DNA of 64,000 bases from Vermamoeba vermiformis. Taxonomy: Eukaryota. The notes under the pieces are model-generated. The model ran no database searches. It saw only the letters and a program-made list of their open reading frames with translations, and had not been told where the DNA came from. Below are positions 30,301 through 61,672 of this stretch, in pieces; within the stretch, counting starts at the first letter, position 1; each line of letters starts with the position of its first letter. Both the position numbers and the translations under genes were made by a program. Where the stretch lies: assembly GCA_045837725.1 (NCBI GenBank), contig JBEWZL010000239.1, positions 372,001-436,000 on the forward strand, given 5' to 3'.

Positions 30301-32428
30301 AACAACTCCTCCATCGATGTTAACTCGCCTAGTGTAGCACCGATGGTCAAACTGATGAGATTCTTGGCGACAAAGAGATAGCCCAATCTTCTGTTCTTGC
30401 TTTCCAAGGGAGGAGGCGTCAAGTATAAGTCGACGTAGGCCTTGAGAAGTGCTTCACGAATGTTGTTTTCTTTCGACCACACCAACATGAGCATCTTTCG
30501 GAGACCATCACGAGCCTTCTCAACGTTAAAGCTCGTCGCGGTAACGAAGAATTGAATTGCTTCCAACACGTCACTGGCGTTCTTAGAGCCCAAAAGCTCG
30601 CAAATGATTGGCACTGAACGGTGGATTTCACGAATGAACTGCACGGCGTCGTTGTAGTAAGTGAACAGTTTAAAGAATCTGGCTTCATCTTCAGTAATCT
30701 CGTTGTTTTCTTCCGCCTCTTGAAGAGCTTCGATGTCTTTTCCAGTGCCTTCCTTAATGGTCTTAGCTAGCTTCTGCAAGTTGTCTTCGAATGTTGATAA
30801 TCGCAATTGAGCTGAGAATGGATTGTATTGACAGATCTGAGTCAAGAGCTGAATAGCACTCTTTCGTACTTGTGACGCTTTGTCTTCCAAACGACCAGCC
30901 GTGAGCTGTGTCACGGTCAAGTACATCTTCAAAGGAATGAATTTGTTCCTATTTAAACCAATGAGCTCGAGTTATTGTAAAAAATAACGTGTAATACTTA
31001 CTGGCACAAGTAGGACCAGGTCTGAAGGACTTTGCTACGCGTGTAAGCATTGATGTCACGGAAACGTTCGATCAAAATCTCCAACAACGAGTCTCGTGTC
31101 TTTGTCGTGGCATCGGCACGAGCATCATCGCCTTCGTTCTGCACGGCAATCATAAATCCAATCACTTGAATAACTCCGTTGCGCATCGTGTACGAGTCGT
31201 GTTCCAAGTGCGTCAACAAGAACGAGATGAAAGGCATCATGGCTCGTGGGATCTTTTCAGCCAACTCACTGATGAATGTTGACACGTTCTTGGCACCAGT
31301 CGTGTCACGTGTCAAATCTCTCGGGTTGAGCTTGCCAATCTCGCGTAACAAGTCACCAACAGCTGTATGGAACTCGTGGTCGTTGACAAGCATTTCAAAT
31401 AGCTCGACGAACGGCGTGACTAAATGCTCGTGTTTGTATAATGAGTCCAAGATAGATTGCACTAAGTTGAATGATTGGTAGTATTTGACGGATGCGTTTG
31501 CCACCAAGATGAGAGCAGCACGTTTGATAGTCTTGCTCTTAATATTAGCCGGGTTCTCCATCACTTGAAAGGCGATGCGTGAAAATAAGTTGAGGAATGA
31601 TTCTTCGGGCTGTGGTAAGTTCCACAAGCGAGACAGATCCAGGTCAATGATCGAGAGCAACATGACGATAATTTTCTCTTTCTCGGCGTCTAATTCCCAA
31701 ATAGACGCGTCCCTGCCTTGTAAATCAGCCTCTTCTTCTTGTTTCTTTTTGCCTTTTTTGCCCTTCTCGCGTGCCACAGGAATTTTTTCTGAGTTCTTTT
31801 TTGCGATTGAATGCTCTTCGGTCTCAATAAGCCATTGAAGCAAATAGACGTACATTTTAAGTGCATTTCTATAGTAATATTAATATCATATTATGCAAAT
31901 ATTATTTTGTAGGGAGCTTACCGTCGTACAGCGAGGGCTTGCGTGTACATTTCGCTATCTTCGAATAACGGATTTTTAAAGAAATTTGATATAGAAGATG
32001 CTGTGGCAGTTAATCCATCTTGAAGCAAGTGTAATAAAGCTGTTTTGGGTTCAGCGGCTAATTTGGATGCATTTCTAAATAGATCTGTCAGAAAAAATAA
32101 TTCTGTTGTGCTAAAAAGATTTTTCTTACTTGACTAATGAAAATAAAGGATCGAAATTTTGATGTTCATAAATTCCTGTAATTGCTGGCTCAGCTTCGCG
32201 TTGAGATTCGTCATCTTCTTCCTTTAAACGTGTAGCAATTTCTATATGAGTGCATTAGTATTATGAAAATTATTTTATAATATTTTTGAACTGCTTACCT
32301 TCGATTTTTGCGTTGATCTCGTCGTCCGTTAAACGATCAACGTTAAGGACGCGATCTACTGTGTATTTATCGGTAGCATCGCTGTTTATTAAATCCTCGT
32401 GCTGAAGAGGTATCACAAATTCCTCCAT
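27325..32428 (-). CDS. NCAPD2: Condensin I subunit CAP-D2/Cnd1/Ycs4
   Basis: MEEFVIP start, ERFRDINAYTRSKVLQ, RLEDKASQVRKSAIQLL and YNPF. Cnd1 domain RVRKNTMMVLTHLILNDMIKVKG and LYNILPETIS. Long charged C-terminal tail. Confidence 0.95.
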
Positions 32429-35415: not shown

Positions 35416-38400
35416 TTACAAATAAGAAGCCCAGCCAATGTACATTTGATGCAAGTTTTCAAATGAGACTGCTTCATCGATGAGACTTTGCACTTGTCCT
35501 TCAACACTCAGCGGCATCAAGAACTCATGGCGATTGTTCGGTGTTCTCTTCTTGCCCTCTAGTCTATCACCAACACCTTTAAAGTACATTTTAGTACACT
35601 GATACAAAGTTGTAGCGGATCCAAACTTACCTTTCAGAATTCCCACGATCTCGGGATTTTCTTCGATAAAATCTCTATTGCTCGCCGTTTTGTTTTTGCC
35701 TTCAAACGAAGGATCGTAAACAAATGTCTCGAGCACAGATAACAACGTGTCTTTGTTTTCGCGCAACTGTCGCATGGTGACCTCGCACACTTGTCTGAAG
35801 GTGCCTTCATAGCCTAATGGTCCCAGAGCATCGACCATTTGTGGGGTCAATCTGAACGGCACCTTCTCAGGCTTATCAAACGTCAAGCCCTTGTAGAACA
35901 AACAGTTGAAATCTACGTGCACCACATCTCCACTCGATGAATCCAACAAAATATTTTCTCCGTGACGATCACCGAGACTACAAGCACATTAATTAACATA
36001 CAGTTATTACTTAAGGATGTATTTGGACTTACCCAACGACGTATCCGACCATGGACATGACTGCTAATGACCGAGCATAAGCCAATCTAGCTCGGAAGAA
36101 CGTTGAAGGCTCGGGGAATGTTTGCAAGAACCAGCGCCAAAATACTGGCGGGAACAACGGCAAGATCTCGTTCACAAAGACAATAAGACTTGGTCCGTCT
36201 TTTTCTTTGTTCGTGTTGCTGTGTTTGTTGTAGATCGCACGAACTTTCTCGAGCTGTTTCTATAAAAATCAGTATTAACATGCCCATATACTTATAGTTG
36301 AATACTTACAGAATCCTTATATATTCCTTCTTGTGCGAGCATCGCGTATATAATGTTTCTGAAGCCATTTGTGTTTGGCACCCACTCGATGAGACCGCAC
36401 TTGTCATTCAACGGCGTGACAAAATACGTTCGAATGTCTATTAAACATCATTAATATACAGTACTATAGTCTAATACTATCTTCTACTTACGTAGCTGTC
36501 TTCGTCTTGCGTCGGGATTTTTCTTGAGCAATTTGTTAATGACCGTATGAAATTCCATCATGCGGCTATCCTTTCGCAAATCGTCGTCAGGCTTGCACAA
36601 GAAAGTGTATCTGTTGCCGTCACTGCCAATAATCTTGATCTTCTTGGGCTTCTGAAGTGACCGCAAGACCTCGATCTCTTCAGCGAACCCTTTGATTGTC
36701 ACCATCCTGTCAGGGAACGGGTTGTAATCGTCTTCCGGCATGCGTGTGTGCGACGGCACTGTCACGGTCATTTGTGCTTGATTGGGAATGATCTGTTGAG
36801 ATTGAGTGTACTTCGCCAACTTCGGGAATTGTTTGGACATGTAGTAGGTCTGTGCGGTGCGTGAGGGACCAGATGAATAATTGCACAAGTCTAGTAAGTT
36901 CGTTGCCAAGGCTCCGTTCTCGGACAAAATCTCTTCGACGTCGTGCCTCAACTTTTTGTTGCCTTCTTTTTGGAGCTCTTTTTGCCTCTTCAGCGCTTCA
37001 GCCTTGATTTCATTGAACTTGTCCAATCGAGCTTTCAACGGTGACTTGTAAAGATACGCCAAATGCCATGACGCTTGATGAGGGAATTTCAACAACACCT
37101 TAAAAGTACATTAATAACCCCTGCAGCTAACTTCTAAGTCGTGTAAAACTTACTCTGACGATGATTTGACGGAGAGGTATCCAGACTTGTTTTGACGGTG
37201 TGCAAACTCGACTCATGAGTTGCGAGTACATGATGAGCCAGTACGCTGGAATGATCTTTGTGTTCGCCAAACAGTTCACTACCTTCTCAACCTTGCCGAT
37301 CGTGTACTCGACGCGTGATTTGGGCATGCCTGGAGGCTGTAGTTTGGTGGTGTAAGAATCGAACCACAGCGTTGTCAGCCGTGCCAGACTTTGATAAATG
37401 TACGTGTGGCCGCTGCGAATGGCCAAACCGTAGTTCGTGCACGCGTTGGGCACAAGATCCAGTGCGTACTTTTCCAACACTTTTCCTTCGCTTTTGCCAG
37501 ACTCTTTCCTCATCTCCGTGATCAAATGGTCGTAGTACTGAGCCAAGGCAAAGAATCCTTTTTCCCATTTACCAACTACTGACGATGCCGTGTTGAATCG
37601 TTGAAGAATAAGATCGTGCGAATATTGGCCAGTTTTGTGGTAGAACGTCGCTAATAGCTAGTTAGTACTATGTACTGCAACGAGACTTTGGACTTACCTA
37701 ACATCACCAAGTTCTTCGCAAAGCACAGGTCAGCAGGAGAATAAACCTTGTTTTTCTTGTTCTTGCCGCTAGTGTTCGTGCTTACTGTCTCGTCCGTGAC
37801 AAAATCGGACAACGACGGCCCCTCGCTCTTGATGTCCACAAGTGGTTTGTTCTCAATTTCACGCTTGAGTGTGATGATCGCCAGTGATTCTTTGCCTTGT
37901 TGAAGCAATAGCTTGGTATGCTCAACACTGTAGAAGTCAGGTCTTGGACGACATGCAGACGCCTTAAGCAACGCGTGCTCGGCTGCGTCATATTGGTAAG
38001 ATATTCTAGCTGTCTTTGCAAGGCGAAGCCAGTTTTGTCCAACTTCCATCGGCAAATACATTCCTGCAAGAACGATGCGCAAGTGCAGAATCTGCTCGTG
38101 AGGCTTGAACGAGTGCTGTGAAATTTTGAGTCTCGGCTCCCAAATTGACGGTAACTCCTGGGCTTGATTGTTCTTGACCAAGTTCCAACATTGCTCGAGC
38201 TCAGCAAGCATGTGCTCTTTGATAATGAAGGGATAAGCTCGTTCATATGAGTCCAAACTAGCAGCTGACAACGGTCCAACGAGCTCGTTTCGTGCTCTCG
38301 AAACCATGTCTTGGAACTCCTTCTCGTCATTCTTCTTCATGGCCACTAACGCCTTGGCCAGGTACACTTCGAAGTCGGGATCAATGACGCCAGGCAATAG

Positions 38401-41400
38401 GCTGTCCAACGCATTCCAGTTGCTCAAGCGCCATGCTGCTCTAATGCCGTGCAAGCGAATAATGCTAGAGCTTGACTTTGAGAATCTGTTCGTGTCGTAC
38501 AACGCTGCTCGTGCCAACTCCAGAACTTCTTCAACTCGACCCAAGTTCTGCAAGCACTTCAATCGGCCAGTGAACACTGTAATGTCATCTTCTTGCTCGC
38601 TCATTGCTTGGTCGTAGTACAGCAGTGCTTCGTGCCATCGGCCTTGAGCTTCAAGCTCAGTGATTTGTTCAATTGTAGAAGCCGCTGAACGGAGGTTACT
38701 GAGACCTCCTACAGAGTCCAGCTCATCAAGACCTGAGTAGACTTTTTGAAGGAAGCTTAAGTCGGCGGCAATAAAGTCCTTGTAATCTCGCTTATTCCTC
38801 TCTTTCATCACTTTGCGGATATGAGTCTCGTAGTACAGCAGTGCTCGGGCATAGGCTTTGACACGCAGTGCTGCCTTAGCGAGATCCATTTGTGGAATGT
38901 CATCTAGTAACTCCTCGACTCGTCTGAGTGCTGTTGATGGCGATCCTCTCATTCCTTTAGTAGGACTTCGCGTATTCTTTTCTGTCAACGCTCTCTTCTT
39001 CAATTCGACGTGTCTGTTCAACGAGTCCAAAAGTGAAAACACTCGCTGCGTTGCTTCTTGGCTGATCTCCGAGGCAGGTTGCTACAACACATTAGTAAAG
39101 GTAATCATAATGAAAATATCGTACACCTACACCACCCGCATTCTTATGAGGACTCATCTCCATCGGATTTTGTATCACAGCGATAATTTCGTCGCGGATT
39201 TGCTTGTATTCCGGAGCTGAGCCTTGCGTCAAGCTGTGAAGCACCAAATGAGGCAACAAGAAGTGTGCAGTGTCCAAGTCTACTTTGACAACTCCTTTGC
39301 AGGCAAGGAACATGGGATGATTCGTGCGATCGATGAGCATGAGAACCCACTCGGTGACCCATTTGCGGTACGGCAAGAACGACTTGTAAATCACACCATT
39401 GGGAATTGGAGAGTTTTTCTGAAGTTCGTAATAGTGAGAGCTCAAGAACGGTCTGATGATCAATTGAACTTCAGGAGGCAACTTAATCCAGAAATTTCCT
39501 CCTTTGTCGGGTGTAGTTGAACGCCCTTCAATTGTCTCCTCGGAGCATCCGAAATACTTGAGAATTTCTTGAATGGCAAATGCAGCACGGTCCTGTGAGT
39601 TGCCAGGACGATCGGTTCTGTAGCACTTGACCAAGTAATCCTTGATTAGCTCGATGGCCAGAGCAGCATTCTCTTTGTCCAACGAAGTACCATACTCCGA
39701 AGCAACCACGATAGGCACTCGACTAGGGTCAATGGCGCCGAGTTCACCGAGTGCAATTCCGACTTTCAATCGGACGCTAAAAAATTATTGTCAATTTAAC
39801 TAACTCCTTTAATTGAGTGCGCGAACTTACTTCTTGTTCGGATCTCTGCAGCCCTCCAAAAGGACTTCGACAAAAGACTTAACGAACGGATTGGACTTCT
39901 CGTTCAAGATAGCATCCTCCATATCTTTGCGCTTTTCCTGCGACACGAAGTTGTTAGTTGTGTCTTAACATCTCAAGTGTACTTACTCTGATAACCTTGA
40001 TGATTCGATCCAAGGCAAGCTCTCGGACGTTAGCACTATCGTGTCTGAAGACTCTGATCAAACGAGCGATTGTATCTTGAAGGCTTGCTTCACTAGTTCC
40101 CGCCGAGGTCTCGTACATTGCTGCGACTCGTTGCAATGCCGGGATGTTGTCGGGCATGAACGGAATTTCGCTGTAAAACTCTTGCAGTGTCGCAGCGCTG
40201 GGGCCAAAGAAGAAGAATTCCAAGATCTTTAGCACTTTGTCTTGGTGCTCATTGACGAATCCCAACATGTGAACAACCATCTGACTGAGCACTGTTCCGA
40301 GAGTGGTAGTCTTCAAATGCTTGACGAGCACTAACCACGTCTCAAGAGCCTCGGGAACTAATGGCGGGTACTTCTCTGCCAACATGATCGTGTTGCCAAT
40401 CTTCAAATGGAACGTCTCCAAGTGCTCTCCAAGCAAACCAATTAGCTCTCGAACAGCTTGCAAGGTTTGAAGCTTCTTTTCCATGGTTGTCTTTGACGAC
40501 AGCTTCTTCGAGAAAATGTTCATAATTGCCAAGAAGCAGTCCTTTAAGAAGGTTGATAATTGGCACTGGCTGTCACCCGCTTGCTGACAAGTAGCATGGA
40601 GTGCTTTGTGTGCACGTTGTTTGAACGGTTCAGGGTTCGTCATTTTAAGCAGCAGCTTCGTCACGAGTTGGAAACGGCACTTTGAGAACAAGCCGGCTAA
40701 CTTCACGTCCGTCAGTTGGTTCAACATTTCAGTACACATATTGACGGCTTGCTTTGGACGAGGGTGAAGCAAGCAGTGGGCTAAAATGTATGGTGAATAT
40801 TTCAGCAGCATTTCCTAATAATATTAGTTAGTACTGATCGCGATAATCACGTTAAAAAACCAAACTAGCTCGTACTTTTGGAGGTATGTCAAGCCGAGAT
40901 GAAATCTCCATGATAAGTGCTTTCTTTTGCTCGATCTCGTTGATAGACGTTGTTGAACCCAAAGTTTCATCAGCGATAATGTGAGGCAAGTAAATCTTCA
41001 TATTATTTCTCAAGAAGTCACGATACTCGAGATCGAGAAGCGCCGAACTAAATTCCATCACGAGCTCGGGAGCCTCTAACAAGCGGTGGACGATTCTCGG
41101 GTACAGTTTGTGTTTGCAACTGGCGAGCAGTGCTCCCATGGTGATTTTCTTCTTATCCGCAATCAAGCGTATTTGATCGTACGCAGTTGCCTTAATTGTG
41201 GAATCGTTGTGCGTCAGATTGTCAATCAGCTTAATCAAGCAGTACGTCAATGCGTCCTCCTTAACGAATGAACCAGCCAAGCCAATAACGTTCTAATTAG
41301 TGTTAATAAAGGGCGACATGGACCAACCAGTTAACTTACGAGTACAGTCGGCTTTTCTGTTGCGGCCTCAAGTGCATTGAGCTCGATGAACATTTTCTCA

Positions 41401-44245
41401 AGCATAGGCATATTATTGAGGAGGACAAATGGAACAACAGCTGTGTGTTAAAGATTAGAAGAGCTTTCTTTCGGTGCTATTCAGTTCACTTACCCTCAGG
41501 AATAGCCGCTCTGATTGCAGGATCGTTCTCCTTTGAGAAGCTCAGAATGGTGCTCAGCAGTTTGAATAAGTCCTCTTCTGGCACTGGCACATGTCGCATT
41601 ATTCTTTGAAGTGAAGATAAGAACGCCACTCTAACTTCTGAATTCCTCTTCTCGTCCATGTACACGAACAAATCTTTCAGTCGTCTGAAGGTAATCTGCT
41701 CAACAGTGTTCACGATGTCGATGCGATTCGCGAGGGCATACTCCTCAGCATTGATGCGACCTTTGATCGGCTTGTACTCCGAGGGAAATCGCTTGTGAAG
41801 TGCGCACGCTTGACAGTGATTCAAGAACGTTAGTGAGTATTCGGAGCTGTCTGGAGCAATGCGCCAAGTGTTGTCGTCTTTGAGGTATTCGAACTCGCAC
41901 TCTTTTGGATTGCGTCGTTGAGTGTACAAGCACGTCCAGTGGCCCACAAAAAATGCCAAATGACGCTGAAGTTGAACATCCTCGGAGTCAATAAAGGACC
42001 TGAACAGACGTCGCGTTAGCTCTACGTATGCGAGGTAACCGTTAAACTTACATTATGAGTGGTATGAAGTCATTTAGATGATCTGCTCCATTGCGTAGAA
42101 GGAACAGCGATATTGCACGAATAGCGCAACACTTCACGCTGGGTCTCTCGTCACGAAGGCAAGCAGTCAAAATCTTTTTGCGTTGACTCGTGATTAGGCG
42201 CGGAGGCAACCAATTCAACGCGCACAATGCCTTGTCGACAATCGACACGACAATTGGCTCTTTGGAAGAGTGAATGCAGTGCTCCATGGGGGCAATTGCG
42301 TCGTGGATCGTGTACTTCTTGGGCAAAGCTTTTGATGTGATTGAAATTGCGTCTGACCAAGGGAACGTCAGGATGCGAATGATTTGTTCGAAGAGTGTTG
42401 ACAGTTCTTGAGCGTCCAAAGTGAACAACAGCTCTCGAATGGATGACACGGCGATGTTGACAGCTGTCAGTATGGCATGATCGTGCGATCTTTTCTCGCA
42501 TAACTTCATCTCCAAATGTTCCAAGAAATCGCTGTATTTCTTCGAGATGGTATCGAATTGATAAATCTCTTTGAACTCGATAAACACCCGCGAAATTACA
42601 TCAACTGTAACTGCAGTTTTCAGTATTGTTGCAGAAGGTGCTCTGGCGAATTCAAAAGTGCAATTGTCCAAAAGAGACAGCAATCGAGTTAGCACGGCAG
42701 AGCCAGCGATGGACGAATAACTCTGCTCGTACTCGTTGAAGTCCAGTTTCCTTCTCTTTGGTGGCTTTTGTTCAATGTCTGTTTGTGTCGTCCTTGTCTC
42801 GTGCTTGATCGCTGTAATCAAACACTCGGTCATGATCTTGCTGAGTGCCAAGTCGTCGATGAACGGCATTAGAACATCAGATAGTTTCTCCACTAATGAG
42901 GGGTACTTTGGGATCCACACATTGAGGACTGTACAGAGTGACGCCTAGAACTTGCGTTAGACTTGCATTGCGCCTTAATCAGCCAGCCAGTAACGTACCT
43001 TCAGAGGTTGGCATCGAGAATATTGTAACGTGTATTGTAATATCTCCATGAAGCCGAGGGACAAAGGCTGAATTGAGTCGGCACGTAATAACGGCAATAC
43101 TTTCAAGATACATTGACTCAGCTTCACGTCTGTCTCGTCACTTCTGTCCTCCGAGATTGTTAATAACTGGCAAAGCACTTTCGCCAATTCGTCCAAGATC
43201 GGAGCTGGTGCACCACAGTACGTCAGCAATAAATCTATTGTATGAAGTGTTTCCTAATTAAACGCTATTAATATCAATCAAATTACTCGGTGACAAAGTG
43301 AAAGGGTAGATCTTACGGTGAGCATGTCCATTGATTGATGTCGTTGTATGTACAAAAATAGAAGTTCCCATATATTGTTCGATATGTCGGGTAAGAATTG
43401 ATGTGCTTTTTCGATGAATCTGCCGTATAAATTTACAATGCAACACTAACAATGAAGTTAGTTACACGAGATCTGCTAACTTTGAGGGACTTGCCTGAAT
43501 ATTCATGATCTTTTCTAACGATGACACGTCTAAGTCTGCTTCGGGGACGGGTTGGTCTGGATCTTCGGGCATTCTGAAATGCGGTGCAAACGTTAAGAAA
43601 CACTTGAGTTTTATGCCAACTTGTCCGTCAGATGGGGTTTGAAAATATGTATACACCTCCTCCAAATCTAATGAAAAGGAATTATAATCACGTCAATATC
43701 TACTAGAACGTCATGTAGTACCTTTTAATAGCAGCAAGGCATCTTTGAAGAAACTTCTGAAAACAGTCAGATCTCGCGTGAATACGAGGTTGAGTAACAG
43801 TTGCATAACATCTATTTCTGCTCTAAATAATTCACTATTGATAGGTGCGTTGCCTACGATGCCAATAAGTCTTAGTACGTAGTGACCAACGATGGAACTG
43901 TTGTCATCGTGGTAGAGGATGTCAGCCGCTCGCTTCTCGATCCATTTGTGAAGGGTTTGTAAATATCCTTTGGCACTTTCTACATTTATAACGTGATTAG
44001 AAATTAATTGGGCAGATAATTGATTTTAATTTGACAGAGATCCGCAAATTATTTTTTAAGCAGAATAAAATGAGTTATTATTATTGAAATTATTAACATT
44101 TTTTTGTACAAATTTACGTACGAGAACTAATATTCTTTTCCAGAGGAGTAAATACCACAGATGGAAACTTTGCTTTGACTTCGCGGGCCCTTTCATCCTC
44201 TGGCAGGTCATTTAATTTTTGAATCCACTTTCCTACGTCTGTCAT
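35416..44245 (-). CDS. ATR: ATR/Mec1 PIKK checkpoint kinase (multi-exon)
   Basis: LGELGAIDP, AYARALLYYE (FAT), SLQKPKK, DDLRKDSRMMEF, GLGDRHGENIL, VHVDFNCLF, and FATC LHQMYIGWASYL. The start (MTDVGKWIQK) is inferred from splice phase. Confidence 0.95.
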
Positions 44246-49540: not shown

Positions 49541-50011
49541 ATGAGCAACATTAATCTTGGCGGTAAGCGCGATCGAAATCATGCCTGGATTCACTTACCA
49601 ATCCTTTGACAGCTGCTGCGCTCGTAGCCATTGGAGGCACTATGGGCTATATGAAGACTGGTTCGATCACTTCATTAGCTACTGCTATTATTTTCGCCGT
49701 CTTGGTTGCTTTCTCCGCGTTCCGTCTCAAGCAAAAAGATCTAAAAGCCCCTACTATCTTAAAAGGTAATTAATTATTTAAAATTATGTTTATACGATGC
49801 ACGAATACCACGCCAAATCTAAGCTCTATTTCTAATTTTCTAATTATTTTATTGATTTTTTTATTTTTGCTTAGTTTTGTGGCTTCTCCTAGCAGTGGTC
49901 ATGGGCTACAGATTCTCTCAATCATTCAAAATTATGCCCGCTGGTGTTGTATTTTTACTCAGCGTTCTTATGTTCGCTTATAACAGTTTGTATGTCAAAA
50001 AAACAAAATAA
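49541..50011 (+). CDS. TMEM14: TMEM14-family small membrane protein (missed by the ORF track)
   Basis: Three exons give MSNINLGAAALVAIGGTMGYMKTGSITSL...VMGYRFSQSFKIMPAG...YVKKTK*, matching the TMEM14 GGxMGYxKxGSxxSL and MGxRFxxSxKxMPAG signatures. Confidence 0.88.
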
Positions 50012-50123
50012 AGCAAACAAGATCTGATTTGCTAAGAATGTATATTACAAATTTATTCGCAATTGTTTCAAATATTACAAGGTTAAGTGTATCTAACAAC
50101 TAAGCTTTATACACGAATGAAGT

Positions 50124-53100
50124 CTATTTGCCGGCCCTAGATCTCGGCTTAAAGGTACGACGGCCACTGATATCGTTCGAAGTAGAGCTGCCTCCACCAC
50201 CGCCACCAAACAGGCCAGTATCAAAGATACTACCGCCACCGCTGGAGGGTTGTTCAGATCGAGAAGAGCTTGAGGTTGTAGCGAAGGGATTAGCTGCCGC
50301 GGAAGAGGGTTGGCTCGCGCCACCAAATCCACCGAATCCGCTTGTGCTCGGCGTGGTGCTGAAGGAAGGCTGCGAAGAACCACCACCGAATCCCGATGAG
50401 AACGATGGAGCACCGCCTGTTCCAAAGCCAGACGAGGTTGAGGTTGAGCTACCAAACGGTGCAGAAGTCGACGCGGAAGGTTGACCAAATCCACCTCCGA
50501 AACCAGATGCGGACGGTGTGGGTTGAGCAGGAGTCGAGGGGAACCCAGGGAAGGATGGAGTGGAAGTGCTTGAAGTAGTAGTCGATGAACCACCAAAGGG
50601 GAATCCACTGGTAGTTGAGCTCGAAGGTTGATTCGAACCAAAAGCTGGTCCCGAGCTAGATGTGGAAGGAGTCGTTGTGAAACCACCAAAGGCAGGGGTA
50701 GATGAAGGTGCTGTAGTTTGAGGACCGAATCCACCGAAAGCAGGTGTGGAGGAAGTTGAAGTAGAAGGGGTAGGTTGTGAAGGGAAACCGAAAGCCGGAG
50801 TTGAAGTGGATGTGCTCGTGCTCGTGCTAGGTGTAGGGTTGAAACCAGTAAAGCCTGACGTCGCTGAGGTCGAGGGTGCCGATGGTTGAGATGTCGATGA
50901 TGGGTTAAAGCCAAAACCTGAGCTTCCAGTTGTTGCCGAAGTGCTCGACTGACCAAACGGAGCGGATGTGCTTGGTGCGGTTGAAGGTGTTGTGCCAAAG
51001 GCAAATGGAGCTGCGCTTCCTGTACCAGAAGTGGTTGAGGTCGTAGAAGAGCCAGTGGGATTGAATCCACCGAAAGCAGGTGTGGAGCTTGCGGGAGTGG
51101 AGCTGCTGGATGTCGCAGGAGTACCAAATCCAAAGCCACCAGTAGTTGTCGTGGATGTTGAAGGTTGGGTGGTAGAGGGTGCAGTTGGGTTGAAATTAAA
51201 CATGCTACCAGCCGCAGGAGTGCTCGAGCTGGTTGTTGAAGAGCTCGTCCCAGAATTGGCGCCAAAAGCAAATCCGACCGTTGTGGGGGTGGAAGTAGTA
51301 CTTGCTGGCTTATCGGTGGCAACAGTAGTCATAGCACTAGTGAACAACGTGCTTCCAGTGTGCGATAAAGCGGGGCGGGTAGCAGTTGTGGTTGCAGAGG
51401 TAGTAGAAGCTGGTTGGCTGGTGCTCGGGGCTCCAAAAGTAAAAGTGCTGCCACCGGTAGAAGCAGCAGGTGTGCTAGTTGAGGGAGCGCTCGTGGAGGC
51501 TGTCGGGTTGAAGTTGAACATACCCGTGGTTGATGGGGCAGTCGTAGATGAGGTGCTTGGTTGTGACGCAGTCGTGGCAGGTGTGGTGGTAGAGGCTGTT
51601 GCGGTGACAGCAGGGAAGTTCATCGTAAAACCGCCAGTCGTGCTAGCAGCAGGCGTCGTGGTGGAAGTCGTGCTAGAAGCTGTGCTCGTAGTAGAAGGAG
51701 TTGGATTAAAGGCAAAGGATGGAGTTGTGGTGGCGGTGGAAGTTGTGGATGCAGGAGTTGTAGTTGTGGTTGTGGAAGTAGTTGTGCTAGTAGAGGGCGT
51801 GCTATTGAAATTGAAGCTCGTTGTTGATGGAGCTGTGGTAGAAGTCGTGCTAGCCTGTGACGAGGAGCTCGTTGAAGTGCCTGCGGTTGGTGTGAATGAG
51901 AAGGATGGCGTAGTCGTCGAAGCCGTGCTTGAAGTAGCAGCGGGCGTTGTTGTGCTAGTTGTTGATGGCTGAGACGAGCTTGTTGTGGGTACGTTGAAGG
52001 AAACAGAAGGAGTGCTCGAAGAAGTTGTTGAAGAGCCGGTAGTGGTCGCAGTAGCAGCGGCAGTCGTCGCGCTCATGGCAAGATCGAACAACGGCTTTTG
52101 AGACTTCTTGTCGTCCTTCTTCTCAGCATCGGCCTTTTCTTTAGCAGCAGAATTGAGCAAGAATTGAGCACGTTTGTCTTCCTCATCGTCGGCGAGCGAG
52201 TTCCACTTTTGACGGCTGGGAGTTTGGTTAAGAACAGAGGGTTTAGCGGTAGAATTGAACAAGACTCGACGTCGTTTTGGTGTTGACTCGACAGGAGTCA
52301 TTGGGGATTGAGGTTCGATGTTAATTCGAGGCAAAGCAGCAACTCCAATACTTCGAGAAGACGCTGCAATATCGTGAATCGTGAGTGGCTTTGGTGGACT
52401 TGCTTGCTTGGAAGTGGGCACGGAGAGGGTTGGAGGAGGCTTGAAGATATCTTCGGTGTTGTCAAGAGCTGGAAGTGAGTAATCCGATTGGTTATCATCC
52501 ATTCCGTTTGTATCGGGCTCCGAAACAAGATCAGGGACTGAGGACTTTAAGTCCATGGGAGAAATTTGCTCCACTGGTGGTTCCTCAGTCGCATCCTGTT
52601 CGACCATATGCTCGTCATCCGGATAAAAGTTTCGCTTTTTGGGTTGCTCTACTGACGCTTGCAAGCTGCGAGAAGAGCGAGGAGTTTGAGGAGCCCTTTT
52701 GCTTCTTTTTTTGGCAGGAACGTCTCCGTTAACACTGCTATCTTCGGGAATATCCTTCTTCTTCCTCTTCTTTGAAACGGTAAGCTTAGGTCGCTTTTCG
52801 ATGGTGCCGGGTGAGTCCAAAACATTTTCGTCAAAACCAAGCGCGACAGCGGCTTTGCGTTTAGGCACTCGCGGTTGATTCAAAAACTCTGAGTGTGTGG
52901 AAGCGACGCGTTGTTTCTTCGGTGAGGTACCACGAGCAGATTCAGTTTCATCATCACGTGTAGATCTCTTGCGTCCTCGGCGTGTTTCCGAGAACTCCAT
53001 TTCTTGCATAAAATCCTCATGTGAAGCCATCGGTGCGCTGGGATATGAGTCCTCAACATTGCCCAAACTAGCGACAGGTTGCATTTTAACGCTCATTACA

Positions 53101-53939
53101 TCGCCTTGAGGTTGAGTGACAAAAGTGTCAAGCGATCGACCACTGGGGGTTGGTGCAATGCTGATTGGGCCTAAAAAAAATATTAATATCATCTCATATA
53201 ATAACATTATAACATACTCTTTAAGCCCTTTTGGCTAAAAGTTCGCTGACGCAAGCTATTTGATCCATTGGCATCCAAAAATGAGTTAATGCTGACTGAT
53301 GGTGCTGACGGAGTAGTGTCTTCGTACGCATTGTAGTTTGAGTTATAAAAGCTATTGACTTGGCCAGCACGCGGTGATAAAAAGTTCAGTCTTTGGGGTT
53401 GCAACGGTGACGCGAATGGATTCGATGCGTTGTTGGTCGCGGTTGTTGCTTGTGATTGCTCTGGTGGTTGTGCAATTTGATTTAAGCGAATGGGAGGTAA
53501 ATTGGCTGTCACTAAACGCAGATCGTGAATTAGATCGAATCAAAAAAAAAAATTGTGCACTTACCATCGATCGGTAAATTACGCTTTAAATTCTTTGGTC
53601 TATTTCTGTTGACTTTGGCATTATTTATTGTAATATTTTTGTTGATCCTAAAAAACACGAAGCGATCAGATCACGATCCAAGCAGTCCAACAAAAGTATT
53701 GAAAATTAATTGATAGTTAAAACTAAAAATATTTGCACTACATAAATGGAGGGTTTTGGGACGATTTAGCAAAGAAAAGAAGAAGAAAGCATATCCGAAT
53801 CCGATTTCACGACTTTTTCTGACTTCCAAGAAAAATATCGGGAACAGGGTGCTACTTACGTGACCGAAGGGGAAATATACTTTGTATAAATGAACCATAA
53901 TATTGCTGCCACAAGAAATAATGAAATCCAAAACAACAT
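50124..53939 (-). CDS. FG-repeat nucleoporin, POM121/Nup153/Nup1-like, with predicted N-terminal transmembrane helix
   Basis: Ser/Thr-rich FxF/FG repeats (SFNF, AFGGF, GFGF), basic NLS-like clusters, and basic C-terminus GRRTFKPRSRAGK. Upstream exons 53860-53939, 53565-53647 and ~53218-53511 splice in phase. The true start may lie further upstream. Confidence 0.8.
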
Positions 53940-54609
53940 CTTTGCCTCCTCTGGTTCGTCAAAATTGTAGATGTGATGAATGGTTCGAGCTGTTTCTGAC
54001 TAAACGCAAGACGGCGAAATATATAAAACAAAAAAATACAAAGGTGCCTTGCGTGGTCGTCAGTAGTTGGTGTGCAAGAAAAGGCGCAAATTGAACAGAC
54101 AATAACTTTGGCGAGAAATTTGGCGCGTTTTGTGCAGTCCGGCCTAGTGAAGAAGAGCAAAGAGCGACTTCACATACTCTTGAATAATCATACAAGCGAA
54201 CCCAAGTGTTGCTTGTGCACCAATTTTTTGTCTCTCATCGTCATCCGAATTCGGATGCTTACCTCTCACCATGTTTTTAGGCAATGTATTTAATACGATT
54301 ATAATTATCGTAGTTTTCTTTCGACTAAACACTTGTCTTGGAGCGGATTGGTCTTAAAATCTGTTTGACGGCTCTCCGATCTAACAGCGCGATTTGAGAC
54401 AATTTGAAAATAATTTCGTCCGAAGCAATAGTTCGCAAAATCATGAGGGGACAGACAGGTCTCGATAAGAAAAAAATTACCTACAATCGCTGGGACTTGC
54501 CAAAATTGGGGTTGCTCAACGAAACCACGTGCAGCAGATTTTTACGAAGCAACAAAATAAATAGCCAGTTGCGGTCAGTTGTAATAAAAATCAAATCAAA
54601 CAACACATC

Positions 54610-56511: not shown

Positions 56512-59500
56512 ATGGGCGTTCCTAAGTTTTTTAGATGGCTTTCTGAGCGATACCCGCTCATTAACCAGACCATCGATTTCCAAAATGTTGGCCCTATCTT
56601 TGGTATGTGCATAAAAATAGGCAAATTATCATAAAGACGATCGTGAAATTGCACTGAATTCATCCGACATCGGCCTTCTAACTAACCCTTACTTTATCCC
56701 AGATTATCTTTACTTGGATATGAATGGTATCATCCATAACTGCACTCACCCTAATGACGGCCAAGTGGTCCATCTCACCGAAACAGAGATGGTGACCAAT
56801 ATTTTTCGTTACATCGAGAATCTGTTCAACATTGTGAAACCCAGAAAAACTTTTTTCATGGCTATCGATGGTAAATATTGTCTCCTATCGAGATTGATAC
56901 GATTTGTTTTTTTTTGAATTTTTCTTTTTCTCATCCGTAATCATTCGTTCCAAAGATTTTCTCTGAACGGTGTTGCATCATCGATCGTCGTAAATACGAC
57001 TCTATTATATGATACTAACCTTATACATCATTAAGGTGTCGCACCAAGAGCCAAAATGAATCAACAAAGACAACGTCGCTTTAAAACTGCGAAAGAAGCT
57101 CGTCTTTTGTTAGAAAAGATGGTTAAGGCCGGCGAAAAAATGCCTGATGAGCCTCCATTCGACTCTAACTGCATCACTCCTGGTACGGAGTTTATGGCTA
57201 GAATTAGCGAGCACATCAAATTTTTTATTCGTAAGAAGATTAAAGAAGACGTTGAATGGCAAAAGATCAACGTTATTTTCTCTGGACACGAGGTAAATAC
57301 ACGTGCATCAACTTACATAAGAGCTTATATTAACTGCTTTAACAGGTTCCCGGAGAAGGAGAGCACAAAGTGATGGAATACATCAGACATCTCAAGGCTC
57401 AAAATGAGTGGGACGCGAATCAAGTTCACTGCTTGTACGGTCTCGATGCTGATTTGATCATGCTCTCGCTAGTCACGCACGAACCTCATTTTGCCTTAAT
57501 TCGTGAAGAAGGTGTGCTCGATCGCAAGAAGAAGAGAGCAGTTGGCTCTCCCGATCAGAAGTTCCACTTGCTTCACATCTCTCTCGTACGAGAATACCTC
57601 GAAATGGAATTCGAGTCACTTAAGCACAAACTCCCATTCCAGTGGAGCTTTGAGAAAGTTTTGGACGACTTCATTTTGCTGAGCTTCTTCGTCGGCAACG
57701 ATTTCTTGCCTGGCTTGCCCAGTCTCGACATTGCCGAAGGAGCTCTCAATATGATGTTCAAATTGTACAAAGACATTCTTCCTACTTTGGACGGCTACTT
57801 AACTACTGCTGGCCAAATGAACTGGAGTCGCATTGAAGTCTTCCTTCGTGCCCTCGCCAAGCACGAGAGGCACATGTTCGACATTATCCCTCCTCACTTG
57901 GAGCAAGTCGAGAAGCGACTGAAGGCTGAGCGACAGAAGGAGAACAAGACCGGCAAACCCATCTTGGCTGACGTTTTGTACGGAGGTGGCCAAGACAAGC
58001 ACGAGGACTTGTTGATCTCCAACGACAGCATTAAGAGCGAAGAAGAGGAGGACGACGAATACTGGAAGACTACTTACTACCGTGAGAAGTTTGAGTTCAA
58101 GGCTGACGACAAGGAGTCCTTGAAGAAGTTGGTCAAGTCGTACCTCGAGGCTATTGCCTGGGTCTTGCACTACTACTTCGACGGTTGTGTCTCGTGGAGT
58201 TGGTACTACCCTTACCACTACCCGCCTCTTGTTTCAGGTAAGTCCTACTCAACTTACAACTGCATAATATTCGTGTTACTAATGTATGGATAGATTTGAT
58301 CAACTTGGCTGATGTCGATATCAAATTCGATATGGGCAAACCTTTCTTGCCGCTTCAACAGCTGCTCGGTGTATTGCCTCCTGGTTCTCGTCGATTCTTG
58401 CCTGCTCCTTATCAACGTTTGATGATTGATTCCGAATCGCCATTGAACCACTACTACCCTCTTGACTTCCCCATCGACTTGAACGGCAAGAAGCACGATT
58501 GGGAAGCCATTGCTTTGATTCCTTTCATCGATGAGAAATTGCTTTTGGACGCTTGCAATGCTATCCCTGAAGGTGAATTGAAGGCCGAAGAAAAGAAGAG
58601 AAATACTTTTGGAAGTTCTTTCAACTTTGTCTTTGATGCTAATGTCAAGGACACCTACAAGTCAACTCTTCCTGGATTGTTCCCTGACGTTATCGAGTGC
58701 AACTCGCGCATGGACGAGTACCACTTGCCCATGATGCCTGACGGTGTCAAGAACAACTTCAGCTTGTTGGCAGCAACCAAGATCGGTGTCCACGTTCCCG
58801 CTGGTCTGCCCACAATGAAGACTCTTCATCACCGTGCTATCCCTCGTTACTTGAAGGTCAACTTGTTTGGTAACCCCAGCAGAAGAGATACTTTGATGAT
58901 CCTTCTTAACCCCACCGAGAAGAAGTATCAAAGACACTTGAAGGCCATTGAAACTGACGAGCGTTCTGGCCGTAATGAACTTGATGACGATGATGTGGGT
59001 CACGCTCAATCTCAAGACCTTGATGAGGATGACTCTCAGAAGCCCGACATTGCCGATTTCGCTCGTAAATACTTGCACAAGAGCTGCTTCGTGTGGCCCT
59101 ACCACCGCGAGGCCTTCGTCACTCAGATCACTTCTGAGGACGGTCGTTGGTCCGAGAACGGTAGCTTTGCTGCTTGGAGAGGCCAAGAGATGAACCAATG
59201 GTACAAGGAGTCTCTTTTCCTTCGCAAGAAGTTCTTGAGCAGCAAGGGTGTGGATGTTGGCACCACTTGGATCCTTGTGCACGTGCGATTCATTGAAGGT
59301 ATGATTCGTGAACGCGGTGTGCTCGTCAAGAGATGGTCTGAGAAGGAAGAAGTCATTCCTTACCAAATCATCCAATCCGCTGCACCCACTGAAGATCCTC
59401 GTTTCCTCGTCACTGCCAAGCAACCCATCGACGAGTTCCCGATCAACACCTTCGCTATCTTCTTGGGCCACGCTGCTTACGGAAGCATTGCCCGAGTTCT

Positions 59501-61672
59501 CAGCCATCAACCCGGCAACAAGGTCAAGGTCGAGGTTGACGAAGCTGTTCCCGATACCAATGTTGGCTACAGAATCTTCAACGAGTTCAAGGAGAACTAC
59601 TTTGCCTTGAACGTTGTGGCCAAGAAGCTCGGTATCTCGAACAAGACTTTGTCCAAGATCACTGCCAGCGTCAAGTTCAACCCTGGTGGTCTCAACTTGG
59701 GCTTGAATTTGAAGTTCTCTAGCCGCGGTCAACAAGTCATGGGCTACACTCGCCGCATTGAGCGTGTCAGTCCTAACGGCCAAACTGTTAGCCGCTGGGA
59801 GTACTCTCAAAAGGCTATTGACTTATTGAGAGACTACAAAGAGAAGTTCCCCGAAGTCTTCAGTGTTGTCGAGGCTGATCCCGAACAGGAGGTCTACCCC
59901 GTCAGCTCCTTGTTCGCTCCTGAGAACACTAACAACAACTTCAACATGAACAACGTCGCTGCTGCTTTGCCCTCTGATAAGCAAGAAGACGAAGATGAAG
60001 ACGAAATTGTTGTTTACAGCGGTGCTGCTGATGCTGCTAGTAAGTTAACATAGCACTATTGGTCGTGCTTAATTCATAACTTATTCACCGTTTTTGTTTA
60101 GAACAAGCTGCTGTTGTTGCTAACAACAACAATAACAACAAGGGCGACAACAACAACGAGCAGAAGAAAGAAGACGACGCTGAGAAGGAAGAAGACCTCG
60201 AGGAGGCTTTGAAGAAGGTCGAACAAGCCGTTCCTGATCAAAACAAGGAACGCTTAAAGACCATCGTGGCTTGGTTGAAGGCCCTGCCCACTGCTCGCAT
60301 GTCACGCGTCACTTCTGGCAGCAGAACGATTCCCAAAGAAGGTGTTGCTGCACTTGAGAAGGAGATCGACAAGCACTTGAACACCATCGGCACTTTGAGA
60401 CCCAAGTTCGTCACTGTCGTTACTGTTGGCTTGTTGTTCAGACCTTTGAGCGACATTGAAATTCACACCAAGGACTTTGACGCACTCGGCAACAAACTCA
60501 AGCTCGGAGACCGTGTCCTCAACTTCAAGGACTCTGGCCCAGTGCCTTTTGCTCTCCGCGGTACTGTTGTCGGCATCAAGGGCAACTTTGTTGACGTCTT
60601 GTGGGACCAGAAGTTGATTGGTGGTACCACCCTCGAAGGCTTGTGCTCGGACTTGCGCGGCTACACTGTGCCCATGGGCAGTGTCTTGAACTTGAACGCT
60701 GAAGGTGAATCATTCAGCGGTGGTCGTGGAGGTCGCGGCGGTCGTGGTGGTCGAGGCCGTGGCGCTCATCGTGGCGGACATCACGAACAACACGATAGAT
60801 TCCCTGGTCAAGGAAACCGTCTCGGTGGTGAGGACAATAACAACAACCGCGGTGGAAATTTCAGACGCGTGTCTGAACTTGAAGGAGGCAACAAGATGAG
60901 AAAGAGCGGTGAAGTCAAGTCCGCCGGCTCTGTCAACTCTTCTGCTGAGTTCCCAGTCCCCGAACAAACTCCTGAAGAGAAGCAAAAGAACCAAGACTGG
61001 TTGGCCAAGATTCAAGAGCAGATCCAACAACAAGCTCAACAACAATCAGCTCTCCCTGCCAACCCGTTCATGTTGGGCTTGACTCCTGAGCAACAACAGC
61101 TCTTGACTTACACTGCTCAGACCAACCCTCAAATGTACCCGCTCGTCTTGCAAAACCTCATGGCACAACAACAGTTGCAAATGCAATTAAGCCAGCAATT
61201 GAACTTGAGCGGCTCTGGCTCTGTCTTGCCAGTCCCTGCTCCTAACTTGACTTGGCAACAACAGCAAATGTTCTCTGGTCCTTCTTCAACCACTTCAAGT
61301 GCCTCTGGTTCTTTGCACTCATCTCACGATGACAGCCTTGAGCCTCAAGGACACCGTGGTGGTCACAGAGGAGGTCGCGGAGGTCGTGGTGGTCGTGGCG
61401 GTCACCGTGGAGGCCATGGCCAAAAGCCCATCAAGCTCTTGCACCACGATGACGATGACAACCAACAACATCAACAAGGTGGTGATGATGGTGCTCACGG
61501 CGGTCACCGTGGAGGCCGACGTGGCGGTCGTGGTGGTCGTGGCGGTCGTGGCGGCCGTGGAGGTAACTACAGACCTCGCGATGAGCAAGGCGGCAACAAC
61601 AATAACAACACTAATGCCGACAACGACAACCCTAACTTGACTTGGCAACAAAAGCAAATGCTTGGCAAATAA
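56512..61672 (+). CDS. XRN1: 5'-3' exoribonuclease XRN1
   Basis: MGVPKFFRWLSERYP, LYLDMNGIIH, AIDGVAPRAKMNQQR, FDSNCITPGT, GEGEHK, YGLDADL, GNDFLP and WYYPYHY. XRN1-type C-terminal domains (LGLNLKF, LGDRV...GPVPFALRGTVVGI) and a low-complexity RGG tail. Confidence 0.97.
61241..61660 (+). repeat. Duplicated 30-nt motif (PNLTWQQxQM) flanking RGG repeats in the XRN1 tail
   Basis: cctaacttgacttggcaacaacagcaaatg (61241-61270) versus cctaacttgacttggcaacaaaagcaaatg (61631-61660): 29/30 identical. Confidence 0.9.

Follow-up and report, generated by a model that had tools for sequence, protein, structure and literature searches.

Can a genome outside the animals encode a membrane-spanning nucleoporin with phenylalanine-glycine (FG) repeats that is laid out like the pore membrane protein POM121, and would such a likeness be one of descent or of layout? 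The question is raised by a gene on the minus strand, at positions 50124 to 53939, of a 64,000-nucleotide stretch of contig JBEWZL010000239.1 (the window), in which an earlier note, made from the letters, had seen short upstream exons for a hydrophobic helix spliced to a long frame of basic clusters and FG repeats. That observation is confirmed, and every feature described lies where the note had placed it. Its interpretation is upheld in part: the FG mRNA does include the hydrophobic exon, which is under selection, the parts stand in the order given, and the genome is not that of an animal, whereas deep homology to POM121 is not borne out. We consider it the best explanation, with a probability of about 60%, that the gene product crosses the membrane once and resides in an amoebozoan's nuclear envelope or pore membrane, working like POM121 and the Tetrahymena protein TtPom121 or, equally, like a transmembrane-tethered FG nucleoporin of the Nup1/Nup153 type.

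The hydrophobic exon in the FG mRNA

Joined on the minus strand, the four exons form a single open frame of 3504 nucleotides (nt), which encodes 1167 amino acids (aa) and ends in a stop codon (Table 1). As the earlier note had proposed, the upstream exons splice into the FG frame with intron phases 2, 1, and 1; the joined frame remains open, and all three introns are of the GT..AG type, with guanine-plus-cytosine contents of 35%, 32%, and 15% from the first to the third. The product of exon 1 is MLFWISLFLVAAILWFIYTKYISPSV, followed by 2 nt of the next codon, which specifies a threonine completed across the joint.

Twenty-four sequencing runs were listed for the stretch, and four of these were aligned to 49900-54300. 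Run X4 consists of Logan contigs that carry another organism label and whose RNA nature is a guess; its strain is about 98% identical to the window (about 1.7% of positions differ in record 6) and is not the window's own. Record 6, a contig of 1257 nt, aligns to 54033-53859, 53646-53565, 53511-53217, and 53169-52465, the second of these pieces (82 letters) being deduced from the numbering of the record. All three introns are skipped, with joints that read CT..AC on the plus strand and thus GT..AG on the strand of the gene, and the depth of X4 per bin fits an intron coverage of zero (expected 3.92 and observed 3.92 in bin 53134-53280). Since it skips every intron, the contig represents a processed transcript, in which the hydrophobic exon, the linker, the basic boxes, and the FG frame are joined. 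With the intron at 53648-53859 spliced out, the hydrophobic exon is a part of the FG mRNA. The 94-nt 5' untranslated region (UTR) of the contig contains no ATG and holds an in-frame TAG at 54002-54000; translation of the known transcript therefore begins with the helix, while the true start of transcription lies beyond what contigs can show. On the 3' side, an AATAAA is present at 50057-50052, 66 nt past the stop codon.

The raw RNA runs X21 to X23, which carry the species label of the best DNA match, contribute 18, 19, and 41 reads that are 95-99% alike to the window. Most align in part (17, 16, and 41, respectively), and they pile up with loose ends at 50941-50981, where about 41 nt match; by eye, a 30-letter consensus of the loose ends differs from the window at about 4 of its 30 positions. 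These reads look like a diverged ortholog or paralog, and the runs seem to stem either from a lineage whose divergence from the window exceeds 5% or from a second gene copy.

Purifying selection from the helix to the FG repeats

A scan of metagenomes gave 587 pattern matches and two confirmed loci, L001 and L002, which are identical over their overlap and are counted as one relative. L002 spans the whole 5' part of the gene with the same four exons and the same donor and acceptor positions, and its introns (210, 47, and 60 nt) have diverged from those of the window, with indels. Over 843 codons, 686 of 843 residues are the same, the proportions of changed synonymous and nonsynonymous sites are 0.667 (pS) and 0.102 (pN), and omega is about 0.07, with synonymous sites near saturation. 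The values for individual parts are given in Table 1. All four changes in exon 1 are between hydrophobic residues or from S to P. The helix is coding and constrained, and the hydrophobic exon is under purifying selection; the same strong purifying selection acts on the whole protein, the helix and the "disordered" linker included. That the linker is constrained at least as strongly as the helix points to dense linear motifs within it.

The N-terminal segment is the only one of its kind in the protein, with a 19-residue Kyte-Doolittle mean of 2.22 at residue 1 as the sole such peak. Over residues 1-18 the Eisenberg mean hydrophobicity is 0.92 and the hydrophobic moment (muH) 0.07, so that the segment is hydrophobic on all sides rather than amphipathic; among 18-residue windows elsewhere, muH peaks at only 0.42, in basic, non-hydrophobic stretches. 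A lone Met precedes the hydrophobic core of 17-18 residues, and the stretch behind it, residues 20-49, has eight K/R but lacks D/E. The positive-inside rule, which is established for the orientation of membrane proteins, predicts from the Met-only N-terminus and this basic flank a reverse signal anchor, of the kind found in microsomal P450 enzymes, with a lumenal N-terminus. The bulk of the protein should thus face the cytoplasm or nucleoplasm, as judged from the distribution of charge.

Behind the helix, the order of parts that the earlier note had described, with a disordered linker, basic clusters, FG repeats, and a basic tail, proves to be real by hydropathy, motif scan, and translation. 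The first basic box follows the helix at a distance of about 196 residues. The nuclear localization signal (NLS)-like motifs RRGRKRS, PKKQR, KRPKLTVSKKRKKK, and AKKRSKR are all present, together with the additional boxes KRK, KKR, and KRRR; with KRRR at residues 451-454, seven boxes in total are spread over residues 216-454. A single-sequence AlphaFold2 model of the 366-aa non-FG part of exon 4 gives no fold (mean predicted local distance difference test [pLDDT] of 50; predicted TM-score of 0.18), and the one confidently predicted helix, at 328-348 of the query, has a block pLDDT of about 73.

The C-terminal 637 residues are a genuine FG-repeat domain with the hallmarks of an FG nucleoporin and not of a mucin. 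They open with FxF/FN motifs and continue with FG, GFG, PAFG, and SGFG motifs and a single GLFG, with five FxFG in all. Thr and Ser each account for 25% of the domain (322 of 637 residues together), and only 13 of the 637 are charged. No fewer than 44 of 53 Phe stand in an FG, GF, or FxF context, a number that averages 17.9 in shuffles and that none of 5000 shuffles reached; likewise, 0 of 5000 reached the 22 FG (mean 6.0), and 4 of 5000 reached the 12 FxF (mean 4.4). The Phe form 32 clusters with gaps of 5-37 residues and a median spacing of 19, and Phe motifs at regular spacings of 10-30 residues in a low-charge, disordered domain are a generic feature of FG nucleoporins. In the comparison with L002, 21 of 24 Phe positions are kept and 224 of 356 positions in the domain overall, and no other common residue is conserved as well as Phe. 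As a separate observation, the X4 contigs differ from the window within the FG domain (50609-52024) by in-frame indels of 3, 6, and 9 nt, of which seven are listed; the length of the FG spacers therefore varies between strains, with the frame preserved.

Table 1. Parts of the FG gene in the window, with the comparison to the metagenome relative L002 where one was made
Feature	Position	Strand	Basis	Comparison with L002
5' UTR, minimum extent	53940..54033	-	Spliced X4 contig record 6 reaches 54033	
Start codon ATG	53939	-	Translation	
Exon 1: hydrophobic helix at the N-terminus (residues about 2-19; predicted signal anchor), with start codon	53860..53939	-	Hydropathy, contig joint, L002	23/27 residues same, pS 0.55, pN 0.064, omega about 0.07
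Intron 1, 212 nt, phase 2, GTAAGT..AG	53648..53859	-	Skipped in X4 contig	Two conserved blocks
Exon 2: basic flank behind helix (INKNITINNAKVNRNRPKNLKRNLPID)	53565..53647	-	Translation, X4 contig	24/26 residues same
Intron 2, 53 nt, phase 1	53512..53564	-	GT..AG, skipped in X4 contig	
Exon 3: N/S/P/Q-rich linker, very conserved	53218..53511	-	Translation, X4 contig	87/97 residues same, omega 0.018
Intron 3, 47 nt, phase 1	53171..53217	-	GT..AG, skipped in X4 contig	
Exon 4, including stop codon 50126-50124	50124..53170	-	Translation; X4 contigs span end to end	
NLS-like basic box cluster, residues 216-335 (RRGRK, KKQR, KRK, KRPK..KKRKKK, KKRSKR, KKR)	52623..52982	-	Motif scan, translation	111/124 residues same (basic-box region), omega 0.048
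Residues 481-501, DEEDKRAQFLLNSAAKEKADA: sole helix predicted with confidence in the non-FG part	52125..52187	-	AlphaFold2 single-sequence model	
S/T-rich FG domain, residues 531-1167	50127..52037	-	Motif counts, shuffles	230/327 residues same (FG part), omega 0.10
Basic C-terminal tail GRRTFKPRSRAGK	50127..50165	-	Translation	

Intron 1 shows a pattern of its own. Two blocks, at 53793-53840 and about 53660-53680 (about 255-303 and 408-428 in L002), are almost unchanged in the relative while the rest of the intron diverges, and they are partly complementary to each other and can pair. A "zipper stem" formed by these blocks was considered and is not supported: the intron folds no better than its shuffles (z of +0.95 for the window and -0.44 for L002), and the minimum-energy fold of L002 is built without that stem. 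Rfam gave no matches over 49900-54300. A splicing aid, a regulatory element, and an internal promoter for a helix-less isoform are candidates for the role of the blocks.

Family membership and rival readings

Deep homology to POM121, one of two explanations offered in the earlier note, found no support in the sequence searches. Pfam returned no family at E<=10 for exon 4, the non-FG part, the FG part, or exon 3, and thus no match to the POM121 family PF15229; phmmer found no match at E<=0.001 for the 366-aa non-FG part among 1.84 billion representatives; a word-indexed search with residues 1-430 of exon 4 found none among 5.8 billion proteins, compared at near lengths only; and the PDB sequence search gave one chance match for exon 4 (E 0.8) and none for the basic-box region. 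PF15229 is the only sequence test of POM121 family membership, and the protein fails it.

When proteins are compared by language-model features (Atlas), exon 4 falls closest to an unnamed arthropod cluster (0.93), with a "mucin-5AC" cluster in second rank (0.91). The POM121 (PF15229) cluster likewise scores 0.91, with 172 of 256 features in common, and is the best named match besides mucin-5AC; 8 of the 30 matches of exon 4 fall in the POM121 set, at a low recognition (1469). For the non-FG part alone, the Nup60p, NUP1, and Nucleoporin_FG clusters reach 0.82 and POM121-like 2 reaches 0.79. Over both comparisons, that of exon 4 and that of its non-FG part, a cluster in which 87% of members carry PF13634 stands at 0.81-0.82. 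A resemblance of the FG-free part to nucleoporins of the basket and of the pore membrane is suggestive, a lead and not proof.

The earlier note had also called the order of parts characteristic of metazoan POM121, which is right as to the layout and too broad as to the animals. As in POM121, a single membrane helix lies near the N-terminus (taken here from the hydropathy peak and its place in the mRNA, and not from a dedicated predictor), NLS-like basic boxes lie on a disordered stretch ahead of an S/T-rich C-terminal FG domain, and the bulk of the protein is on the pore side, which for the amoeba protein is suggested by charge only. In rat Pom121, five basic boxes at 290-484 lie between the membrane helix and the FG domain (PMC4569319). 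By sequence, the parts of the literature drawn on here confine POM121 to vertebrates (PMC2951903) or chordates (PMC6371224) and state that flies, nematodes, tunicates, and a choanoflagellate lack it (PMC2951903; PMC6371224), and the layout also occurs in Tetrahymena. The amoeba protein differs from POM121 in giving no sequence match, in a helix that starts at residue 2 and leaves no lumenal N-terminal segment, in an FG domain with FxF/FN motifs at its start and a basic tail at its end, and in its amoebozoan-like host. POM121 itself localizes to the pore, has basic boxes that bind importin alpha, and interacts with the beta-propellers of Nup155 and Nup160.

Membrane-spanning FG nucleoporins have already been described outside the animals, in Tetrahymena and Plasmodium, and the amoeba protein is grouped with them by layout, not by homology. 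TtPom121 of Tetrahymena thermophila, as far as it is described in the excerpt cited, has an N-terminal membrane helix, an NLS within the N-terminal part, and C-terminal FG repeats and lies on the nuclear side of the pore; both it and TtPom82 were localized in Tetrahymena (PMC5450191). It is, like the amoeba protein, a protist protein, and it differs in belonging to another supergroup and in being specific to the macronucleus. FG Nup221 of Plasmodium berghei is likewise a non-animal FG-repeat nucleoporin with predicted membrane helices, although it has two of these and is Nup98/100-like in the descriptions cited, from which, and not from sequence, the comparison is drawn (PMC6062611; PMC9601220). 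Among the open-access papers and preprints listed by a search aimed at Amoebozoa, judged by title and the start of the abstract, no membrane-spanning FG nucleoporin of that group was found.

A second comparison is with yeast Nup1 and Nup60 and metazoan Nup153, FG proteins that are bound by their N-termini to the inner nuclear membrane. In the account cited, they bind through amphipathic helices, and a transmembrane tether can stand in for that of Nup153 in vitro (PMC8700311). The amoeba helix, in contrast, is uniformly hydrophobic, with the muH of 0.07 given above, and the protein has neither a Nup153 region nor RanBP2-type zinc fingers (no Pfam family at E<=10, no Cys, and no AlphaFold2 fold). 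The second explanation of the earlier note, a Nup153/Nup1-like basket nucleoporin with a membrane anchor of its own gain, is plausible from the weak likeness in Atlas features, and the protein can equally be viewed as one of the Nup1/Nup60/Nup153 type with a transmembrane helix in place of the amphipathic one.

It can be hypothesized from these comparisons how a pore-membrane protein of this kind would work. The uncharged N-terminal helix would act as a reverse signal anchor, inserted cotranslationally into the membrane of the endoplasmic reticulum (ER) with its N-terminus in the lumen, leaving residues 20-1167 on the cytoplasmic or nucleoplasmic side. The basic boxes at residues 216-335 and 451-454, some 200-430 residues from the helix on the disordered linker, may recruit importin alpha/beta, and the long linker would give the extralumenal part the reach to traverse the pore as the helix moves along in the membrane, so that the protein could be carried to the inner membrane or the pore membrane like Heh2 and rat Pom121. 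The Heh2/Src1 proteins of the yeast inner nuclear membrane have LEM/HeH and MSC domains and two membrane helices and carry no FG repeats. What they share with the amoeba protein is a strong basic NLS and a long disordered linker to the membrane helix, and in the portion of the study cited the inner-membrane import route was shown for Heh2 and for the NLS region 290-484 of rat Pom121, with linkers of 37-53 residues failing and one of about 180 working (PMC4569319). With the protein retained at the pore membrane or on its nuclear side, the FG domain, S/T-rich and low in charge, would be able to bind transport receptors and add to the permeability barrier or to the FG mass on the nuclear side, and the protein may also help to seed or anchor pores.

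Several points weigh against such a pore-membrane protein. The sole sequence homolog is one close relative, L001 and L002 being the same. Pfam Nucleoporin_FG (PF13634) has no match even at E<=10, and the Atlas scores are sensitive to composition, with a third of shuffled proteins reaching 0.8-0.82. The reads of X21 to X23 yield no expression evidence for the allele of the window. Localization at the nuclear pore, topology, and receptor binding are predictions from sequence, and signal anchors of the mitochondrial outer membrane look similar, with basic residues behind an N-terminal anchor.

The last two of these points carry the strongest competitor, which we regard as unlikely, though clearly ahead of the remaining ones: an FG protein seated in another membrane, be it the general ER, stacks resembling annulate lamellae, or the mitochondrial outer membrane, or else a stored or regulatory FG protein away from the pore. 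N-terminal anchors with a basic C-terminal flank do direct proteins to the mitochondrial outer membrane; neither Pfam at E<=10 nor AlphaFold2 reveals a recognizable domain for binding the pore scaffold, and the nuclear-pore location is itself a prediction. Against this, the Kyte-Doolittle mean of 2.22 is high for a mitochondrial anchor, and the closest Atlas clusters of the non-FG part are, if weakly so, all nucleoporins. The basic boxes on a long linker, moreover, fit the inner-nuclear-membrane signal of Heh2 and Pom121 as it appears in the excerpt cited (PMC4569319).

Considerably less probable is a secreted or surface glycoprotein of the mucin type, in which a cleaved signal peptide would precede a lumenal or extracellular, O-glycosylated S/T-rich domain. 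The hydrophobic segment does stand at the very N-terminus, about half of the C-terminal domain is Ser plus Thr, and mucin-5AC is the second-ranking Atlas cluster of exon 4. The segment nevertheless reads poorly as a cleavable signal peptide when judged by rule and not by SignalP: it has no positive n-region, its core exceeds the 7-15 residues of such peptides, the sole candidate site of small residues (SPS|V) contains a Pro, and the eight K/R with no D/E behind it predict the opposite orientation. There is no Cys in the whole protein. A mucin would also leave unexplained the conservation of seven NLS-like boxes and of an acidic stretch (93 of 109 residues, beside the 111 of 124 of the basic-box region), as well as the periodic Phe in FG and FxF context, beyond any of the 5000 shuffles and kept in the relative.

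We give just as little credence to the wider proposal that the layout of helix, NLS, and FG repeats is ancestral to Amorphea at least, and perhaps to all eukaryotes, so that POM121, TtPom121, and the amoeba protein would be orthologs and Nup1 and Nup153 derivatives with an amphipathic replacement. Most doubtful of all is a true POM121 ortholog with an eroded sequence and a layout inherited from the common ancestor of Amoebozoa and Opisthokonta or earlier, since the same order of parts and similar spacing (boxes about 200-450 residues in, FG in the C-terminal half), the Atlas score of the POM121 cluster, and the quick loss of sequence signal in disordered proteins stand against the empty PF15229 and phmmer searches, a layout simple enough to have arisen repeatedly, and the many losses demanded if POM121 is confined to vertebrates or chordates as the cited excerpts have it (PMC2951903; PMC6371224).

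Host genome and meaning of the FG protein

The claim that the genome is not an animal's holds on the evidence of a neighboring Xrn1 gene. Its 603-aa frame has one protein match that is 88% identical and a best full-length match of 38%; chytrids, Glomeromycota, and Mucoromycota follow at 33-34% and animals at 28-31%, and the two best full-length matches without a protein name are EukProt entries, from Arcella intermedia and Thecamoeba quadrilineata. A quick tree under LG+G4, rooted on Acrasis, was built from 30 rows, the window and 29 of the 82 proteins returned; most of the 53 omitted were fish isoforms, additional Mortierellaceae, or fragments. In this tree Arcella intermedia is the sister of the window (SH-aLRT branch support of 95), which lies outside the clade of animals plus fungi (97). 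From one gene, one outgroup, and a short search, we provisionally assign the host to Amoebozoa, probably Tubulinea.

The surroundings of the FG gene are ordinary for a eukaryote. Multi-exon genes with a housekeeping look flank it, for condensin Cnd1 (27325-31879, minus strand), an ATR-type kinase with UME, M-HEAT, FAT, PI3/PI4-kinase, and FATC domains (35416-42944, minus strand), and Xrn1 (57343-61672, plus strand), and other genes of the window encode a TMEM14 protein, kinases, and WD40 proteins. The TMEM14-family frame at 49567-49773 on the plus strand (PF03647, E 2.1e-12) and the FG gene converge tail to tail, with about 350 nt between the end of the former and the stop codon of the latter at 50124. 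At 11290-13692 on the minus strand, an intronless frame of 800 aa matches DUF4962 (E 7.8e-21) and a Heparinase II/III C-terminal domain (E 2.2e-14); genes of this polysaccharide-lyase type are mostly bacterial, and its presence in a protist genome may reflect a transfer from bacteria.

The fastening of nuclear pores to the membrane differs between lineages. To our knowledge, only Ndc1 and gp210 among the pore membrane anchors look ancient by sequence, and POM121 is counted as a vertebrate invention. If the reading as a pore-membrane protein is true, the amoeba protein would bring the number of independent lineages with a membrane-spanning FG nucleoporin to three or four, the others being vertebrates, ciliates, and possibly Apicomplexa. 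There is a practical point in this as well: where short 5' exons are omitted from gene models, such proteins are missed. The question that becomes testable is whether a membrane-tethered protein with FG repeats and an NLS has come up repeatedly as a means to seed or anchor pores from the inner membrane, or whether it is an old component masked by rapid drift of its sequence.

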